Shown here: one piece after another, positions 27,232 through 40,958 of the stretch
Position numbering within the stretch: the stretch's first letter is position 1
How the letters are laid out: each line of letters begins with the position of its first letter
From: an uncultured Planctomycetia bacterium
GTDB lineage: Bacteria; Omnitrophota; Gorgyraeia; Duberdicusellales; 4484-171
NCBI GenBank assembly: GCA_964629655.1
Contig: CAZVQU010000003.1
Location: 17,613-81,612 of the forward strand
Length of the DNA: 64,000 nt
Reading direction: 5' to 3'
Notes under the pieces: model-generated
What the model was told of the DNA's origin: nothing
Database searches by the model: none
Seen by the model: the letters and a program-made list of their open reading frames with translations, nothing else
Made by a program: the position numbers and the translations under genes

Positions 27232-28878
27232 ATGTTTTGTTATCAATGCCAGGAAACGATTAAAAATACAGGGTGTACAAAAATTGGTGCTTGCGGAAAG
27301 GCTGAGCCGATAGCGAATTTACAAGATTTATTAGTATATGTTTTAAAAGGCCTATCTATCGTTGGAATTAAAACAAAAGATAAAGGTACTTTAGATAAAA
27401 AATATGGACGATTTATTTCCAAGGCTTTATTTGCAACAATAACTAATGCTAATTTTGACGATGCTAGAATAATTAGCTTAATTAAAGAGGCAATTATCTT
27501 AAGGGATGAGTTAAAAAGTAATTGTGAGACATGTAGTAGTGGTGAGGTTCATGATTCGGTAAGCTGGGGAGCAGACAGGGAAGAAGAATTTATTGAAAAA
27601 GCTAAACATATTGGAGTTCTATCTACTGAGAATGAAGATACTAGGTCATTAAGAGAGCTTCTTATTTATGGGGCAAAAGGAATAGCCGCATATGCTGATC
27701 ATGCAGCTGTTCTAGGTAAAGAAAATGACTTGATTTATGATTTCTTAATCGGGGCATTAGAGTCTACTACAGGAGATTTGTCAGTAGATGAGATGGTCGC
27801 TTTAGTCTTAAAAGCCGGGGAGTTTGCAGTTACTACTATGGCTTTGTTAGATGAAGCTAATACTGCCGCCTACGGTAATCCTGAGATAACTAAAGTTAAT
27901 ATCGGGGTCAGAAGTAATCCTGGCATACTTATCTCCGGACATGATCTTAAAGATATGGAAATATTGCTCAAGCAAACTGAAGGTGCTGGTGTGGATGTTT
28001 ATACCCATTCTGAGATGCTACCGGCAAATTACTATCCAAAATTTAAGAACTATGAGCATTTTGTAGGAAATTATGGCAATTCTTGGTGGAAGCAGCAAGT
28101 TGAGTTTGAGTCTTTCAACGGTCCGATTTTAATGACTACAAATTGTATTACTCCGGTTAAAGATTCTTACAAAGACAGGATTTTTACTACCGGTATGGCA
28201 GGTTATCCGGGAGTCAAACACATACCTGATTGCAATAATGGTCAGGGAAAAGATTTTTCAGAAATAATTGAATTGGCAAAACGATGCCAACCACCAAAAC
28301 AAATTGAAACCGGAGAAATAGTCGGTGGTTTTGCCCACAATCAGGTGCTTTCTTTGGCTGAGAAGGTGGTAGAGGCAATTAAGACAGGAGCAATAAAACA
28401 GTTTATCGTTATGGCTGGTTGCGATGGTCGAGGAGCTTCGAGAAGCTATTTCACCGAGGTTGCTGAAAAGTTACCTAAAGACACAGTAATTCTCACAGCC
28501 GGTTGTGCTAAGTATCGTTATAACAAACTGAGCCTTGGTGATATTGGCGGTATTCCCCGAGTACTTGATGCCGGACAGTGTAATGATTCTTATTCTTTAG
28601 CAGTTGTAGCCTTAAAATTAAAAGAAGTTTTTGGCATGAAGGATATCAATGAGTTGCCAATTTCCTTTGACATCGCCTGGTATGAGCAAAAAGCAGTAGC
28701 AGTTCTTCTGGCCCTTTTATCTTTGGGGGTAAAGGGAATCAGGTTAGGCCCAACACTGCCGGCATTTCTCTCCCCCAATGTGTTAAATGTTTTGGTTGAG
28801 AAGTTTGATATTAAACCGATTGCAGACGCCAAGAGTGATGTTAGCACAATGGTCAAAGGAGCAGGGGTGGCAAAATAA
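27232..28878 (+). CDS. hcp: Hydroxylamine reductase / hybrid-cluster protein
   Basis: [24 protein letters not shown]-terminal Cys motif and full-length (548 aa) Hcp architecture. Confidence 0.9.
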
Positions 28879-28888
28879 GTTTATCACA

Positions 28889-29599
28889 ATGAAGGAAACT
28901 CGGGTAACATTTAGCGAAAGGATAAAGAGAACTGCCACCATTGAGAGTTTTCGATTTAGGCCTGAAGAGAAAATAGATTTTTTACCTGGACAATTCCTTC
29001 AACTTATCTTTGATCAAGAAAATAGGAATAACTCCGATCTAAATAAATACCTTTCTTTTTCCTCAGCTCCCGATAAGGAGTGCTTTGAAGTAACTAAAAG
29101 AATGTCTGGTAGTGAATTCTCTCAAGCCCTAGCTAAGCTAAAAACAGGTGATAGATTTTTGATCAAGGCTCCGATGGGAAATTGTATTTTCAAAGATGAA
29201 TATAAAAAAATCGGATTTCTGGTTGGCGGAATTGGTATAACCCCGGTTATTTCAATACTAGAATATATTACAGGCAAAAATCTTGATACTGACGTCTGTT
29301 TGTTGTATTCTAATAGAACTGAGGAAGAAATAGCTTTTAAGGATGAGATCGATAGCTGGAGCCAGCAAAACCCAAATATTAATCCGGTATATGCCATTAC
29401 TAATTGCGCGCCGAAAGATAGGAAGTGTTTTTTCGGGACAATCGATGGACAATTCTTAATTGATAATATTTGTGATCCTAAGCAGCGAATTTTCTTTATT
29501 TTTGGACCACCAAACATGGTAGCATCGATGAAAAATATTTGTCTTGAAATTGGCTGCGTTAACGATATGGTAAAAGTAGAGAATTTTATTGGTTATTAA
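28889..29599 (+). CDS. FAD/NAD(P)-binding oxidoreductase (ferredoxin-NADP reductase-like; possible Hcp reductase partner)
   Basis: RFRPEEKIDFLPGQFLQL (FAD site) and GFLVGGIGITPVISIL (NAD site). Start set to ATG 28889 after hcp stop. Track start 28787 overlaps hcp. Confidence 0.6.
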   Translation: MKETRVTFSERIKRTATIESFRFRPEEKIDFLPGQFLQLIFDQENRNNSDLNKYLSFSSAPDKECFEVTKRMSGSEFSQALAKLKTGDRFLIKAPMGNCIFKDEYKKIGFLVGGIGITPVISILEYITGKNLDTDVCLLYSNRTEEEIAFKDEIDSWSQQNPNINPVYAITNCAPKDRKCFFGTIDGQFLIDNICDPKQRIFFIFGPPNMVASMKNICLEIGCVNDMVKVENFIGY

Positions 29600-29610
29600 G
29601 GAGGTAAGAG

Positions 29611-29751
29611 GTGAAAAAGTATATATGCATGGTTTGTCAGTACATTTATGATCCGTCTGAAAATGACAATATTGAATTTGCTCATCTGCCTGACGATTGG
29701 GTTTGCCCTGAGTGTGGAGTGGGGAAAGATCAGTTTGAGGAGGTTGAATAG
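29611..29751 (+). CDS. Rubredoxin
   Basis: (M)[14 protein letters not shown]...[16 protein letters not shown], canonical CxxC...CPxC rubredoxin. GTG start after AAGGAGG. Not in ORF track (46 aa). Confidence 0.8.
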
Positions 29752-29765
29752 GGGGGTTGATCTAA

Positions 29766-30926
29766 ATGAAGGCAGTTGAGATCAAAAAAAATATTTATTG
29801 GGTAGGAGGCATCGACCAGGGTTTAAAAGACTTTCATGGCTATTTAACCCAACGCGGAAGCACTTACAATGCCTACTTAATTATTGATGAAAAAATAGTA
29901 CTCGTTGATACGGTCAAGCACTATCTTTATGATGAGATGCTGGCCAGAATAAAAAGTGTCATAGATCCGGCTAAAATCGATTACATTATATCTAATCATA
30001 CCGAGATGGATCACTCCGGATGCTTGCCAAAGATTACCAAGGTTGCCAGCAAAGCCACAGTAATAGCTTCCCCTAATGGCCAGAAGGGATTAAAAAAGCA
30101 CTTTGAAGAAGAATTTATTTTTAAGATTGTTAATAGCGGTGATTCAATTAATATTGGTAAAAGAAATCTACAATTTGTGCTTACTCCCATGGTTCACTGG
30201 CCAGATTCTATGGTCACCTGCGTCCGGGAAGATAAGTTACTGCTTTCTAACGATGCTTTTGGCCAACATATTGCTTCTCGGGAGCGCTTTGATGATGAGC
30301 TTGGTTTAGATATAGCTATGCAAGAAGCTACTAAATATTACGCTAATATAGTTCTTCCCTTTGGGGTGCAAGTTAAAAAAGCTCTAGAAGCTTTATCGGG
30401 ATTGGAAATTGACATGATTGGCCCTAGTCATGGTATTATTTGGCGCAAATATATAAGTGAAATCATTAAGAAATATAAAAGTTGGGCCGATAATACCATT
30501 GCAGAAAAAGCTGTAGTCGTTTATGATACAATGTGGGGTTCGACCGAAAGGATAGCTAAGACAATTTCTAATGTTTTTATCAATAAAGGTATTCCAACAG
30601 AACTCTTAAATCTTAAAAAAACCCATATCTCCGATATCATGAGTCAAATTTTGACTGCTAAGTATATTTGCGTTGGCTCACCGACATTGAATAATACTAC
30701 ACTTCCTACTGTGGCAGCGTTTTTAAATTATATGCAGGGGCTTGGGCCTAAAAATAGAATTGGCTTGAGTTTTGGTTCATATGGCTGGGGTGGCCAAAGC
30801 ATTGGCCAGATGCAAGAAGTTTTAGAGACTTGTCGATTCCAATTATTAGATAGTATAAAAGTGCAGTATGTGCCGAACAAAGAGGTTTTGGCTGAGATAA
30901 CAAGTAAATTAGAGAAGGCTATCTAA
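29766..30926 (+). CDS. Flavodiiron protein (metallo-beta-lactamase + flavodoxin domains; O2/NO reductase)
   Basis: HTEMDHSG di-iron motif in N-terminal MBL domain. C-terminal flavodoxin-like VVVYDTMWGSTERIA. Confidence 0.85.
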   Translation: MKAVEIKKNIYWVGGIDQGLKDFHGYLTQRGSTYNAYLIIDEKIVLVDTVKHYLYDEMLARIKSVIDPAKIDYIISNHTEMDHSGCLPKITKVASKATVIASPNGQKGLKKHFEEEFIFKIVNSGDSINIGKRNLQFVLTPMVHWPDSMVTCVREDKLLLSNDAFGQHIASRERFDDELGLDIAMQEATKYYANIVLPFGVQVKKALEALSGLEIDMIGPSHGIIWRKYISEIIKKYKSWADNTIAEKAVVVYDTMWGSTERIAKTISNVFINKGIPTELLNLKKTHISDIMSQILTAKYICVGSPTLNNTTLPTVAAFLNYMQGLGPKNRIGLSFGSYGWGGQSIGQMQEVLETCRFQLLDSIKVQYVPNKEVLAEITSKLEKAI

Positions 30927-30964
30927 GGTTGGATGATAGAGGTTATAGTTTATAGAAGGAGGTA

Positions 30965-31543
30965 TTGATGAAGAGCGTAAAAGGAACGAAAACTGAGAAA
31001 AATCTATTAGCTTCTTTTGCTGGAGAGTCACAAGCCAGGAATCGCTACACTTATTTCGCCTCAGTTGCCAAAAAATCAGGCTATGAGCAGATATCAGCTA
31101 TATTCCTGGAAACAGCTGATAATGAGAAAGAACATGCTAAGAGATTTTTTAAATTCTTAGAGGGCGGCGAGGTTGAGATTGCTGCCGCTTATCCGGCAGG
31201 AGTTATTGGAAATACACTTGCTAATTTAGAGGCTGCTGCGGCCGGAGAATATTTAGAGTGGACCAAGCTTTACAAGGAGGCTGAAAATATTGCCAGAGAA
31301 GAGGGCTTTGAGCAAGTTGCTGACTTATTTAAAGAAATTGCCGGGGTAGAAGTCGAACACGAGAAGAGATACCGTAAGCTAATTGAAAATATAAAAGAAG
31401 GCAAGGTATTTGAAAGGGATGTAGTGGTCAAGTGGAAATGTCGCAATTGTGGATATGTTCATGAGGGTAAAGTTGCCCCTGAAGAGTGTCCAGCCTGCGC
31501 GCATCCGCAGAGTTTCTATGAGTTACTTTGTGAGAATTATTAA
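30965..31543 (+). CDS. Rubrerythrin
   Basis: Ferritin-like ExxH pairs (NEKEHAKRF, VEVEHEKRY) plus C-terminal rubredoxin-like WKCRNCGY...CPACAHP. Confidence 0.85.
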   Translation: MMKSVKGTKTEKNLLASFAGESQARNRYTYFASVAKKSGYEQISAIFLETADNEKEHAKRFFKFLEGGEVEIAAAYPAGVIGNTLANLEAAAAGEYLEWTKLYKEAENIAREEGFEQVADLFKEIAGVEVEHEKRYRKLIENIKEGKVFERDVVVKWKCRNCGYVHEGKVAPEECPACAHPQSFYELLCENY

Positions 31544-31573
31544 TGAGATTTTAGTCGAATTAAGGAGGTAGTT

Positions 31574-32017
31574 ATGAAGGGGCATGTCTGTAAGGTCTGT
31601 GGGTTCATATCTATAAAAGGAAACGCGCCTGATAATTGTCCGGTTTGTGGTGCCCCAAAGGCATCTTTTCTGGAGAAAGACGACGCTATAAAAGCTCCCC
31701 AAGATCCAAGCAATCTAAGCGAATTGGAAAAAAAACATATTCCAAGCATTACTGTTGTTAAAAAGTGCGGATTAATTCCTGAAGGTTGTCAGGATGTGCA
31801 TGTTAAAGTAGGCCAAATCCAGCATCCGATGAGCCCTGAACATTATATACAGCATATCGATTTTTACATTGATAAGGAATTTATAGCAAGGGTACACTTA
31901 AGTCCCGAGAAACTTAATCCGGCAGTAGCACTTCATCTTAAAGACGGTGCAGGCAAGCTTACTGCCGTAGAATTCTGTACTGTGCATGGAGTTTGGGTTA
32001 GTGAGGCAGATTTGTAA
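31574..32017 (+). CDS. Superoxide reductase (desulfoferrodoxin-like; N-terminal CxxC...CxxC domain + SOR domain)
   Basis: CKVCGF...CPVCG N-domain. SOR ligands EKKHIP, HPMSPEHYIQH, CTVHGVW. Confidence 0.75.
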   Translation: MKGHVCKVCGFISIKGNAPDNCPVCGAPKASFLEKDDAIKAPQDPSNLSELEKKHIPSITVVKKCGLIPEGCQDVHVKVGQIQHPMSPEHYIQHIDFYIDKEFIARVHLSPEKLNPAVALHLKDGAGKLTAVEFCTVHGVWVSEADL

Positions 32018-32035
32018 TTTAACAAAGGGAGTGTA

Positions 32036-32524
32036 ATGAGAAATACTTTTAATCCTCAGGAGATAGTAAAGATTGCAATTAACATTGAGGAGAATGGCAA
32101 AAAGCTTTATCAGGATCTAGAAGCTAAGGCTAAAGATAACAAGCTAAGGGAAGTGTGGAAGTATTTAGGAGAGCAGGAAGAGATTCATCGCCAGATCTTT
32201 CAAGAGATGCTTGATAATATCGGAGAGTATATTGTTTATGAGTTTAGCCCTGGTGAGTATGAAGCTTACTTGAGGGCTATTGCTACTGAGTATATCTTTA
32301 CTCAGGAGGTAATTAGCGGGAAGGTAAAGGATGGCTTTCGCAGTGATCTTGAAGCTGTTGAGTTCGGTATATTCGTAGAAAAGGAGTCAATTCTTACTTA
32401 TTTGGCCTTGCGTGAATATGTGTTGACCGGCAAGCAGGCAGTATTGGATAAGGTTATTAATCAGGAGAAGAAACATCTGAGCGATCTTACTGGTTTAAAG
32501 AATTTTTTAAAGAAGGAGGATTAA
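32036..32524 (+). CDS. Ferritin-like / rubrerythrin-family di-iron domain protein
   Basis: 162 aa. Predicted four-helix bundle with E...ExxH-like spacing (EQEEIHRQ, EKKHLSD). Confidence 0.45.
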   Translation: MRNTFNPQEIVKIAINIEENGKKLYQDLEAKAKDNKLREVWKYLGEQEEIHRQIFQEMLDNIGEYIVYEFSPGEYEAYLRAIATEYIFTQEVISGKVKDGFRSDLEAVEFGIFVEKESILTYLALREYVLTGKQAVLDKVINQEKKHLSDLTGLKNFLKKED

Positions 32525-36932: not shown

Positions 36933-38744
36933 ATGAGTTTCGACGTATTTTACATGCAGATACTTTGCTTTGGCGTGCTTGTGCTGGCAGCTAATTTTGG
37001 CGGAAAGCTGACTCGACGCTTGCATATTGGAGAAGTTGTCGGACAGGTCCTCGGAGGGCTTATTGTTGGCCCGGTACTTCTTCTTTTCCTAGGAGATAAA
37101 ATTCCAGCCTACAAAACCGCATTAGAGGCACTACATTTTTTTACCTTTGCTTTTCTTTGTCTTGTTGTTTTTGGAATCGGCGGTGAGCATAGCATTGCGA
37201 AGCTTAGGCGCCTCGGCAAGGATGCATTAATTATATGTTTTGTTCAGGCTTTTGCTACTTGGTTTTGTGTAACTGCAACATTTTTTTTCCTAGGATTCAA
37301 GCCAATCGTAGCCCTTATTGTAGGAAGTATTGGAATTGCAACTGCGCCGGCGACAACATTCGTAATAATGAATAAGCTTGGGATTGCCGGGAAGATGCGG
37401 GATACCCTTGGGAGCATCGTAATCCTTGATGATGTAATTGAAGTTGTAATTTTTTCAATAATAGCACAAGCTGCTTTACTTCTTCAAAAAGGTTCAGAGA
37501 TGTCTTGGGCCAGTCTATCTTTTCCGGTTGTAAGAGAAGCCGGTTTTGCACTCCTGCTCGGGTTCGCTATTTTTATTGCTTTGCGTTTTACGATTAACCG
37601 CAGGTGGCTTGTGTCGAAAGAGGAGAGAGAACGAACCGGAACACCTCTCGGTTCAGAATTTTTATCCCGGCTTATCTCTGAGTTGCCGGGCCCGTCAGTC
37701 GATGTGTTTGTGATCGCCTGGGGTTTTGTTACTCTGGGAGTCGGCCTTGCCTTGCATTGGAATCTTCCCTTTTTAATCACTGCAGTCAGTGCCGGGATTT
37801 TTGTATCAAATTTTTATAGCCACCAAGTATTTAAATCACTGAGGATTGAAAATGCAACTTCAGTTTTTACGCTTATATTTTTCGCCCTTATTGGAGCCAA
37901 TGCTAACATTGAAGCTTTCCATCCCGAGAATTTTTTATTTATCGGTTTTTATGTTGCTGCCAGAACTTTGGGGAAAATGGGTGGTACTTGGCTTGGCTGC
38001 ATAGTGACGCATCAAAATAAAAAATTAAGGCATATTCTGCCAAAATTAATGCTTCCTCAGGCTGGAGTTGCTGCTATCGAGGCATTTTTTATTGCCGCTG
38101 TTCTTGGAAAGGATGGCCAGACCATTTTGGGCATCATATTGCCAGGACTTATAATTTTTGAAACAATCGGTGTTTTAACTTCCGAGCGGGCGCTCTTGAA
38201 GTGGCGCTCATGGGCTACTGGTGGTGGTGAGCTAATTGGCGAAGAGGATAAGATTAGAGAGTTGGTCGAGAAAGAAGAACTAAACATGAATAAACTTATT
38301 AAGCCGGAGTGCCTGCGGGTCCCCTTAGATGTGAGTTCAAAGGGTGAGGCTATTTGGGAATTGATACGCACACTTCAGTCTGTGGGTTTTATTCATAATG
38401 CCGGGAAAGTGCTTGAAATAATACTTCAGAGAGAAAGACAAGGCGGAACTACTCTTGGCCAAGGAGTTGCCATCCTTCACGGTAGAATTCCCGGCCTTAG
38501 CGAGCCTGCCGTTGCTTTAGGAGTTTTGCGAAAAGGTCACGGTATTAATTTTGGCGGCCAGGAAGATACCTCGGTCGATATAATTTATATGGTTCTTTCG
38601 CCTGAAGATAAACCTGAGCTTCATCTTCAGATATTAGCTACGATAGCAAAGTTTTTGCTAGACAGTGATGTTAGAACGTTATTACGCTATGCCAAGAATG
38701 AATTAGAAGCAATGAAGATTATTGATGAGCACTCTAGGAAATAG
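36933..38744 (+). CDS. Cation:proton antiporter (CPA/Na+-H+ exchanger domain) fused to C-terminal PTS EIIA(Ntr)-type domain
   Basis: About 400 aa 11-13 TM exchanger core. C-terminal CLRVPLDVSSKGEAIWELI...GQGVAILHGRIP...VDIIYMVLSPED resembles PtsN/EIIA type-2. Confidence 0.7.
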   Translation: MSFDVFYMQILCFGVLVLAANFGGKLTRRLHIGEVVGQVLGGLIVGPVLLLFLGDKIPAYKTALEALHFFTFAFLCLVVFGIGGEHSIAKLRRLGKDALIICFVQAFATWFCVTATFFFLGFKPIVALIVGSIGIATAPATTFVIMNKLGIAGKMRDTLGSIVILDDVIEVVIFSIIAQAALLLQKGSEMSWASLSFPVVREAGFALLLGFAIFIALRFTINRRWLVSKEERERTGTPLGSEFLSRLISELPGPSVDVFVIAWGFVTLGVGLALHWNLPFLITAVSAGIFVSNFYSHQVFKSLRIENATSVFTLIFFALIGANANIEAFHPENFLFIGFYVAARTLGKMGGTWLGCIVTHQNKKLRHILPKLMLPQAGVAAIEAFFIAAVLGKDGQTILGIILPGLIIFETIGVLTSERALLKWRSWATGGGELIGEEDKIRELVEKEELNMNKLIKPECLRVPLDVSSKGEAIWELIRTLQSVGFIHNAGKVLEIILQRERQGGTTLGQGVAILHGRIPGLSEPAVALGVLRKGHGINFGGQEDTSVDIIYMVLSPEDKPELHLQILATIAKFLLDSDVRTLLRYAKNELEAMKIIDEHSRK

Positions 38745-38810
38745 CGATATTAGTTACTACAATCGGCTTTCGCGTTTAAAATAGAAAAACAAGTAATACT
38801 TAAAGAGAGG

Positions 38811-39899
38811 GTGTGCATGCAAGAGGTTGTTCGTGAAGAACGGAATTTAAGTTTTTTCGAAAAATATCTAACGATTTGGGTTATCGGCTGTATTGGTCTG
38901 GGTATTTCACTTGGAAGGCTGTTTCCCCAAGTGGCTGTTGCTTTGGATAAGGTCTCTATATATCAGGTTTCAATTCCGATAGCAATATGCCTTTTTTTCA
39001 TGATGTATCCAATTATGGTCAAGATTGATTTTGCCCAAGTAGTTAAGGCCGGAAAGACTCCGAAACCGGTATTGCTTACCCTGTTCGTAAATTGGTGCAT
39101 TAAACCATTTACGATGATGGCTATTGCGACTTTATTTTTGGGAGTAATTTTTAAAGGTTGGCTGCCGGGATTCGAGGTTATCAAAGGGGGAGGGTAAGTA
39201 GAGCTATATCGATCGTATATTTCCGGATGTATTTTACTCGGTATCGCTCCTTGTACGGCAATGGTCCTTATTTGGGGGCATCTGTCTAAAGGTAATGACG
39301 GCCACACCTTGGTTATGGTAGCAATAAACTCCTTAACAATGTTATTTCTCTATGCGCCATTAGGCAGTTGGTTATTAGGTGTTAACAAAATGCCTATACC
39401 TTGGCAAACAATTGTATTATCGGTTGTAATTTATGTAGGGCTACCGCTTATTCTCGGGTATTATTCAAGGAGACTGATTATTGCTAGAAAAGGTTTTAAG
39501 TGGTTTGAAGAAAAGTTCATTCATCGTCTAACTCCGGTATCTATCGGGGCATTGCTTATTACCTTGGTTCTTTTGTTTTCATTTAAAGGGAATTTGATTA
39601 TTAGTCAGCCACAAATCATTGTATTAATCGCCGTACCGCTCTTTATTCAAACCTGCCTGATTTTCGGATTAGCCTATTTAATGGCTAGGTGGCTAAAATT
39701 TCCATACCGGGATGCTGCTCCTTCTGCGCTTATCGGGGCAAGCAATCACTTTGAGGTTGCTATAGCAACCTCAGCAATGCTTTATGGGTTATCATCAGGA
39801 GCGTCATTGGCTACTGTAGTAGGTGTGTTGATTGAGGTGCCAGTTATGCTCATGTTGGTCAGAGTATGCTTGAGGACTAAGCATATATTTGCTAGATAG
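38811..39899 (+). pseudogene. ACR3-family arsenite efflux permease interrupted by a single in-frame TAA (39195-39197)
   Basis: ORFs 38811-39197 and 39261-39899 are in the same frame. Read-through gives ...[34 protein letters not shown]..., restoring a roughly 362-aa ACR3 (N-term FEKYLTIWVIGCIGLGISLG; conserved GIAPCTAM). Confidence 0.7.
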
Positions 39900-40013: not shown

Positions 40014-40958
40014 ATGAATATTGGAATAGCTAAGGAAATAGGCGCTAGAACCTTGGAACGCAGAGCGATTCTTTTACCAAGAGAGGTTGGTAAATTGGTT
40101 GAAGCCGGACACAAGATTTTTTTTGAGAAAGGTCTGGGAAAGGGCATATATATCAATGATTCTGAGTACAAACAAGCCGGGGCAGAGGTAGTTAGCCAGA
40201 GAAAGAACATTTTTAATAAATCCATCGTTGTAAAGTTGAAACCTCCACTGCCGCAGGAATTTGGATTACTAAACAATAATTTATTGTTCAGCATGCTTCA
40301 CGCTGAGCAAAACCCAAAATATATAAAGGCCCTAAGGAGAAATAAGGCTAAAGCTATTGCTATGGAGTTGATTCGAAATAGGGGCGGTGAGCGTCTTATC
40401 CAGTGTTCGGGTATGTCTGGCGAGCAAGGTATGATTTATGCTTTCTATCTTGCCGAAAAAAGCCCCAGTGAATGTAATGTTTTAGTTTTAGGCTATGGTG
40501 CTATTGCAACTGGGGCTTTGAGGGTCGCTTTTAGTCTAGGAGCTAAGGTCAAAGTTTTAAGGAAGCAAGAGTATCCTTACATAAAGCAATTTATTAAAGA
40601 CAAAGATATTGTGGTTAACGGCATCCAGTGGCCTAAAGAAAAAAGAGAGAAAAAGGAATATCTTATTACAAAGGAGATGTTTTCTCTTTTCAACAGGGGT
40701 GCGGTAGTTTTGGATCTTTCTGTGGACTATCCTAACCCCATTGAACCTTGCCATCCTTCCTTCCTTAACCAGCCGGTTTATGAAATTAACGGTATAAAGT
40801 GCATTAGTATATATGGTTATCCCAGGTTGGCACCTGTCTCCAGCTCTCGACGGTACTCAAAAAAAGTATTACCTATATTATTAAAAATTGCATCTATCCC
40901 GTTAGGAGAACTTCCGAAACATATCAAGGAAGCTATTGTTGACCCTGATAAATACTGA
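40014..40958 (+). CDS. AlaDH/PNT-family NAD(P)-dependent enzyme (N5-(carboxyethyl)ornithine-synthase / opine-synthase-like size)
   Basis: MNIGIAKEIGARTLERRAILLPREVGKLVEAGHKIFFEKGLGKGIYINDSEYKQAGAEV (AlaDh_PNT_N) and Rossmann VLVLGYGAIATGALRVA. 314 aa, shorter than alanine dehydrogenase. Confidence 0.6.
   Translation: MNIGIAKEIGARTLERRAILLPREVGKLVEAGHKIFFEKGLGKGIYINDSEYKQAGAEVVSQRKNIFNKSIVVKLKPPLPQEFGLLNNNLLFSMLHAEQNPKYIKALRRNKAKAIAMELIRNRGGERLIQCSGMSGEQGMIYAFYLAEKSPSECNVLVLGYGAIATGALRVAFSLGAKVKVLRKQEYPYIKQFIKDKDIVVNGIQWPKEKREKKEYLITKEMFSLFNRGAVVLDLSVDYPNPIEPCHPSFLNQPVYEINGIKCISIYGYPRLAPVSSSRRYSKKVLPILLKIASIPLGELPKHIKEAIVDPDKY

Follow-up and report, generated by a model that had tools for sequence, protein, structure and literature searches.

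The window, by which we mean the whole 64-kb stretch of DNA that was analysed, holds a single copy of the ACR3 arsenite efflux gene, and the reading frame of this gene is broken by one in-frame stop codon. Two open reading frames on the + strand, 38811..39197 and 39261..39899, lie in the same frame, and the sole stop between them is the TAA at 39195-39197, within the sequence GGA GGG TAA GTA GAG CTA. The joined translation, with X at the stop, covers positions 1-327 of the 327 in the NCBIfam profile TIGR00832 ('acr3') at 401.4 bits (cutoff 282.8), and also matches Pfam SBF (E = 1.8e-43). The initial annotation of this DNA had described an ACR3 gene carrying one in-frame TAA with both halves otherwise intact; frame, translation and full-length profile match all bear this out, and the translation it quoted across the stop was reproduced exactly. 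It was also correct that the two reading frames are in register and separated by this TAA only, but its start at 38811 needs revision. We consider that the gene most likely starts at ATG 38817 rather than at GTG 38811, because the homologues open with MQEV or MEHV, GAGAGGG precedes this ATG by 5 nt, and gene calls made independently yield 126 amino acids. That GAGAGGG (38805..38811, + strand), read from the sequence, would function as a Shine-Dalgarno-like element for the probable ATG. Apart from the TAA, the ACR3 frame is full length at 38817-39899.

The N-terminal part of the gene (38817..39194, + strand) comprises 126 codons, encodes predicted TM1-TM3 and ends in FEVIKGGG. The premature TAA (39195..39197, + strand) stands, by alignment with relatives, at the position of Gln127 in the variable loop between TM3 and TM4. 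The remaining frame (39198..39899, + strand), 233 codons and the normal TAG stop, contains TM4 with the GIAPC cysteine and the glutamate motif NHFEVAIA, and is 93-95% identical to intact homologues. Within it, gene callers open a second reading frame of 212 amino acids from Met149 (39261..39899, + strand), which begins past Cys146, has no Shine-Dalgarno sequence and is probably non-functional. Nowhere else in the window does a stop interrupt one family match; the remaining same-frame pairs of adjacent open reading frames are distinct genes. The gene is thus ACR3 by descent, sharing the end-to-end profile and the GIAPC and NHFEVAIA motifs with the family (Acr3/ArsY, TIGR00832; BART superfamily), which includes the Acr3 proteins of C. 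glutamicum and B. subtilis. It differs from ACR3 arsenite efflux permeases in that its product has 126 amino acids instead of about 360; the uninterrupted ten-TM frame of about 350 codons is absent, cut by the TAA at codon 127. As encoded, and judged from its reading frame, it is no functional member of the family.

[quoted passage not shown] In the window, the motif GIAPC146TAMV, invariant in two homologue alignments, places Cys146 downstream of the premature stop. The NHFEVAIA motif is also downstream; its glutamate is invariant in the alignments and is the putative equivalent of C. glutamicum Glu305. The 126-residue product has the first three predicted helices only, and lacks TM4-TM10, the TM4 cysteine and the TM9 glutamate. 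A sequence search for a solved ACR3 structure found none. In a low-confidence AlphaFold model of an intact homologue (P0002, pLDDT 46.6), residues 112-128 are non-helical and lie between a long helix and a broken TM4 helix.

More than 8000 ACR3 homologues exist, and the best 120 (84-93% identity, 354-395 amino acids) come mostly from Omnitrophota metagenome-assembled genomes (MAGs); from these homologues and from synteny, the host genome is probably a member of the Omnitrophota. The comparison with related genomes that the initial annotation had proposed gave a sense codon at the site in the 27 close homologues and 80 GTDB loci compared. Of the 27 close homologues (84-93% identity), 22 align a Gln with the stop, three a Glu and two an Arg. 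Across 80 GTDB species representatives, the position is occupied by Q, E, T, A, R, K, P, S or D, as befits a variable loop residue, and none of the 80 has an in-frame stop anywhere in ACR3. The two closest intact genes among those with readable long contigs, L001 (JGI 3300032737) and L002 (GCA_964455085.1), are syntenic with the window and use CAG here; identity to the ACR3 of the window is 91-93% for the nearest syntenic homologues that are intact. The neighbourhood common to all three runs through rubredoxin, flavodiiron protein, rubrerythrin, desulfoferrodoxin, glutaredoxin, an ArsP_1/YHS permease, and thioredoxin-reductase-like, PNPOx and LMWPc ArsC-like genes to ACR3. Wherever a relative examined carries Gln at the site it is encoded by CAG (16/16), and this codon is kept in all 16 even though synonymous sites between most of the genes are saturated.

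As the relatives have CAG, the TAA of the window requires two substitutions. The order of these is not determinable, but we regard CAG to CAA to TAA as more plausible than CAG to TAG to TAA, since CAA and CAG are used about equally in the window (229 and 253 codons). In several relatives the CAG GTN is preceded by GGC or AGC, and the site then forms CCAGG, a Dcm-type motif. Deamination at such a hot spot was considered as a general cause and rejected: the likely ancestor of the window sequence, GGG CAG GTA, contains no CCAGG. It could explain the TAG found at the same codon in another lineage (L087, discussed below), in which the presumed ancestral AGC CAG GTC does contain the motif.

The gene shows no sign of decay other than the stop. 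Pairwise dN/dS between the window and L001 is 0.10, against 0.06-0.08 among intact genes. When changes were assigned to branches by parsimony, with L002 and L003 as outgroups, the window branch received 24 synonymous and 12 non-synonymous changes, the latter being the stop and 11 conservative missense changes (seven upstream and four downstream of the stop); the intact sister branch of L001 received 26 and 12. The window branch thus has no excess of non-synonymous change and no detectable relaxation of constraint. Judged from these substitutions, the undecayed 233 codons downstream may mean either that the stop is young relative to the branch or that selection continues, and they fit both equally. 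We have taken the young-stop reading because it needs no special mechanism. The initial annotation had put a very recent nonsense mutation among its readings, and the CAG of the relatives together with the absence of a non-synonymous excess on the window lineage make it the best one.

The lesion is not unique. The 90%-identity cluster of the window's fragment also contains P0130, a 126-residue product from a different lineage and a different neighbourhood (L087-L089), which has TAG at the same codon followed by an intact remainder. We surveyed 120 clusters of N-terminal ACR3 fragments, a sampling that is not unbiased, the query itself being a 126-residue fragment. Every fragment that we looked up was genuine, in that one in-frame stop was followed by intact ACR3 sequence, as far as the normal C-terminus where the contig reached it; in L091 and L092 the contig breaks off shortly past the stop. 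In all, seven other metagenomic ACR3 lineages have one in-frame stop each in an otherwise intact gene. The stop is TAG at Gln127 in L087 (6118-7197; also L088 and L089) and in L091 (417-836); it falls on the adjacent codon, which is Gln in the intact cluster-mate P0254, as TAA in L092 (4881-5346) and as TAG in L095 (216-1280). TAG replaces Trp115 in L096 (82-1179) and L097 (54-1151), and Trp153 in L093 (3001-4128) and L094 (2501-3655). No TGA was seen among the eight stop-bearing lineages, the window included. Two of these lineages have a further change: L093 has a Pro-to-Leu substitution in the invariant APC motif, and the L092 lineage (P0186 and P0251) shares a Pro-to-Leu substitution in the near-invariant LPG motif. 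Split products of the second-reading-frame type are represented by two of the best 120 clusters of C-terminal homologues, the window's own and P0287 (from L097).

Of 58 clean-ended fragments, 15 end immediately before a Trp or Gln of the reference, where about three would be expected (W and Q together make up 5.4% of the region); the fragment ends are concentrated before Trp115, Gln127, Trp153 (seven clusters) and Trp196. A single substitution of some kind would turn 113 codons of L001 into a stop, and for 19 of these a transition would do so. The stops lie at transition-accessible Gln and Trp codons. The repeated hits at Gln127 thus belong to a broader scatter of nonsense alleles made by C-to-T and G-to-A changes, which suggests ordinary mutation recurring in a family that has been sampled very heavily. 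Gln127 and its neighbour, hit in five lineages, are somewhat over-represented against a transition-only expectation, an excess that ascertainment could produce. We found nothing specific in the literature on nonsense alleles or pseudogenes of ACR3.

Two pairs of fragments are of separate interest. P0186 and P0251 are distinct haplotypes with the same stop codon and four residue differences, while P0135 and P0257 end at the same codon and differ strongly in their first 40 or so residues. As two haplotypes end at one codon, the stop has either persisted for some time or been recombined. One idea is that stops in the TM3-TM4 loop are tolerated, or even selected, as 'dimmer' alleles, in which a Gln codon of a variable loop is replaced and occasional misreading by tRNA-Gln supplies a low level of wild-type transporter. 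We think this very improbable; if true, it could explain TAA or TAG at Gln127 or the adjacent Gln in the window, L087, L091, L092 and L095 with an intact downstream half.

An error of sequencing or assembly, with CAA or CAG as the true codon and an intact gene, had been among the readings offered by the initial annotation, and the intactness of both halves of ACR3 would suit it, as would the fact that a single base difference could suffice to create the stop. The relatives, however, have CAG, which differs from TAA at two bases. The exact 126-residue product was called on Logan contigs assembled run by run from SRR8146442, SRR24302413 and SRR24302411, which belong to two accession series (roughly 2018 and 2023). 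Over lengths of 4977, 4604 and 960 bp these three contigs show 100% identity to the window, and all of them contain the TAA. The NCBI source contig (145,550 bp) yields the same 126-residue call and an identical 212-residue product of the second reading frame (P0261). As these runs were assembled separately, reads from at least three runs must contain the TAA, and it is no assembly or consensus artefact; we therefore hold an error to be highly improbable. A segregating polymorphism, in which a real TAA allele coexists with an intact allele in the population, is a different matter: it is compatible with our preferred explanation, and we regard it as possible, if rather doubtful. In its favour, ACR3 nonsense alleles turn up in many scattered metagenomic lineages, and two of the Logan contigs, L005 and L006, both end at window position 39368, which may indicate strain variation close by. 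Against it, we found no intact allele close to the window sequence, the best intact homologue being 93% identical, and scans with the exact pattern of the window allele, allowing NNN at the codon, found no match in the GTDB genomes or the JGI metagenomes, two collections that do not include the source genome. The contig ends are themselves curious in that L005 and L006 come from different runs and stop at exactly 39368, inside a conserved part of ACR3; they may reflect a break in the assembly graph at sequence common to, or varying among, co-occurring strains. A functional split transporter, assembled from separately made TM1-3 and TM4-10 pieces, would be favoured by a break that falls, in the low-confidence model, in an interhelix loop and by the second reading frame that gene callers report. 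The arrangement is not conserved in relatives (80 GTDB loci), however, and there is no in-frame ATG, GTG or TTG between the TAA and Met149, which itself is not preceded by a Shine-Dalgarno sequence. Translation from Met149 would give a product that lacks the indispensable Cys146. With no start before Met149, and Met149 itself past Cys146, a functional second polypeptide is not expected, and we judge a working two-piece transporter to be extremely unlikely.

A further alternative is programmed read-through or recoding, in which an amino acid such as Gln would be inserted at the TAA at a rate sufficient for functional full-length ACR3, perhaps as a means of keeping expression low. Several points speak for it. 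The stop stands for Gln, tRNA-Gln is the main near-cognate misreader of UAA (PMC5289835), and its insertion would restore the wild-type residue; the site is in a variable loop that tolerates many residues; the downstream half has not decayed; and stops at this Gln codon or its neighbour are found in four other lineages, two of which exist as more than one haplotype. The stop is nevertheless missing from the closest relatives and from all 80 GTDB loci. In the JGI metagenomes, a scan of 241 million contigs for TRR (a stop or Trp codon) in the context VEL[YF]RSYISGC returned a single contig (L088), of another lineage. The initial annotation had anticipated that orthologues sharing the TAA, with evidence of read-through, would overturn its view; the 27 close homologues and 80 GTDB loci have sense codons instead. 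UAA is reported to be the least read-through stop codon in bacteria (PMC5289835), and here it is followed by G. The 105 nt around and after the stop have a fold z-score of only -1.40 (17 of 200 shuffles fold as well), and the region has no Rfam match at E <= 1. Equally clean stops at Trp115 and Trp153 occur elsewhere, where insertion of Gln would not restore the protein, and the Pro-to-Leu changes in conserved motifs of L093 and L092 indicate decay. No tRNA gene was found in the window. TAA itself is the commonest terminator there, ending 27 of 45 long ORFs, as the initial annotation had said in calling it an ordinary stop throughout; the window therefore uses the standard code. Reassignment of TAA can be dismissed, as TAA is a genuine terminator and ACR3 is the only interrupted gene of the window. 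The read-through of the UGA between the coat and A1 proteins of phage Q-beta offers a useful comparison, in that both have an in-frame stop followed by a long, intact and conserved coding region. In contrast to that leaky UGA, the stop of the window is UAA, is unconserved among orthologues and has no stimulatory context or structure that we could find. The initial annotation had already called a recoding or read-through site the less likely reading, and an unconserved stop in the context UAA-G with no stimulatory structure leads us to regard it as very improbable.

We conclude that the locus very probably carries a genuine, evolutionarily young nonsense allele of the ACR3 arsenite efflux gene, single-copy within the 64-kb window, although a second arsenite pump may lie elsewhere in the genome. 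The analysis shows that the stop codon is there and recurs in several sequencing runs, what the ancestral codon was, and that the gene has no further lesion. Loss of function is likely, the gene being null or strongly hypomorphic, and read-through at the TAA is presumably low. We suggest that an ancestral CAG, encoding Gln in the TM3-TM4 loop, most probably changed by way of CAA to TAA, and that translation would now end after 126 residues, beyond TM3. Rare misreading of the UAA by tRNA-Gln would bring back the wild-type residue, and since such background misreading inserts the ancestral amino acid, the allele may be a very strong hypomorph and not an absolute null. The lesion resembles the classic amber and ochre pseudogenes that arise from CAG, CAA or TGG by a single transition, in that the stop replaces a Gln codon and no other lesion is present; it differs in requiring two substitutions from the CAG of the relatives. 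The proper annotation is accordingly an ACR3 pseudogene or nonsense allele, not two 'bile acid:sodium symporter' fragments, and the locus should not be counted as arsenite-efflux capacity when the arsenic resistance of the MAG is inferred. Unless read-through is shown, the allele is a minor curiosity. The recurrence of single clean nonsense codons at Gln and Trp codons of ACR3 in many metagenomic lineages is a caution for surveys that read arsenic resistance from gene presence.

The initial annotation placed the dead ACR3 beside ArsC, an ArsP-like permease and an intact arsenosugar-like pathway, and suggested a shift from As(III) extrusion to organoarsenical handling. The adjoining ArsC-like gene is real and of the LMWPc type, but falls just under the equivalog cutoff of TIGR02691 (157.9 against 174.3 bits). 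The 'ArsP-like' gene is an ArsP_1 permease with a YHS domain; its best matches are to Cu/Zn efflux models and far below cutoff. Other neighbours are thioredoxin-reductase-like, PNPOx-like, inositol monophosphatase and GDT1-like genes, a Na+/H+ exchanger fused to PTS-EIIA, an AlaDH-like gene, a YheCD ATP-grasp protein, a generic SAM methyltransferase and a B12/radical-SAM protein. The matches of the methyltransferase and radical-SAM neighbours are generic and far below curated cutoffs (for example, KedN5 135 against 700 bits and ArsL 23 against 450). None of the neighbours, these two included, matches an ArsM or ArsS model; the arsenosugar-like pathway thus falls away, and the proposed shift to organoarsenical handling, left unsupported, has no basis in the window.

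Several features of the surroundings are worth recording. Immediately upstream, the ars-like genes are preceded by a conserved oxidative-stress cluster (27232-32524) that is also syntenic in L001 and L002. Its products are a hybrid-cluster protein, an NAD-binding oxidoreductase, rubredoxin, a flavodiiron protein, rubrerythrins and desulfoferrodoxin. The gene for the exchanger-PTS EIIA-2 fusion, 603 amino acids long (36933-38744), separates ACR3 from the GDT1-like gene; the syntenic relatives L001, L002 and L003 lack it, and it is therefore a lineage-specific insertion. Downstream of ACR3, the AlaDH/PNT-like gene is intact in the window (40014-40958, 314 amino acids), and its counterpart in L002 (GCA_964455085.1, 11188-12133) is split by a frameshift into 83 and 221 amino acids, with tblastn passing from frame 1 to frame 2 near residues 77-111.
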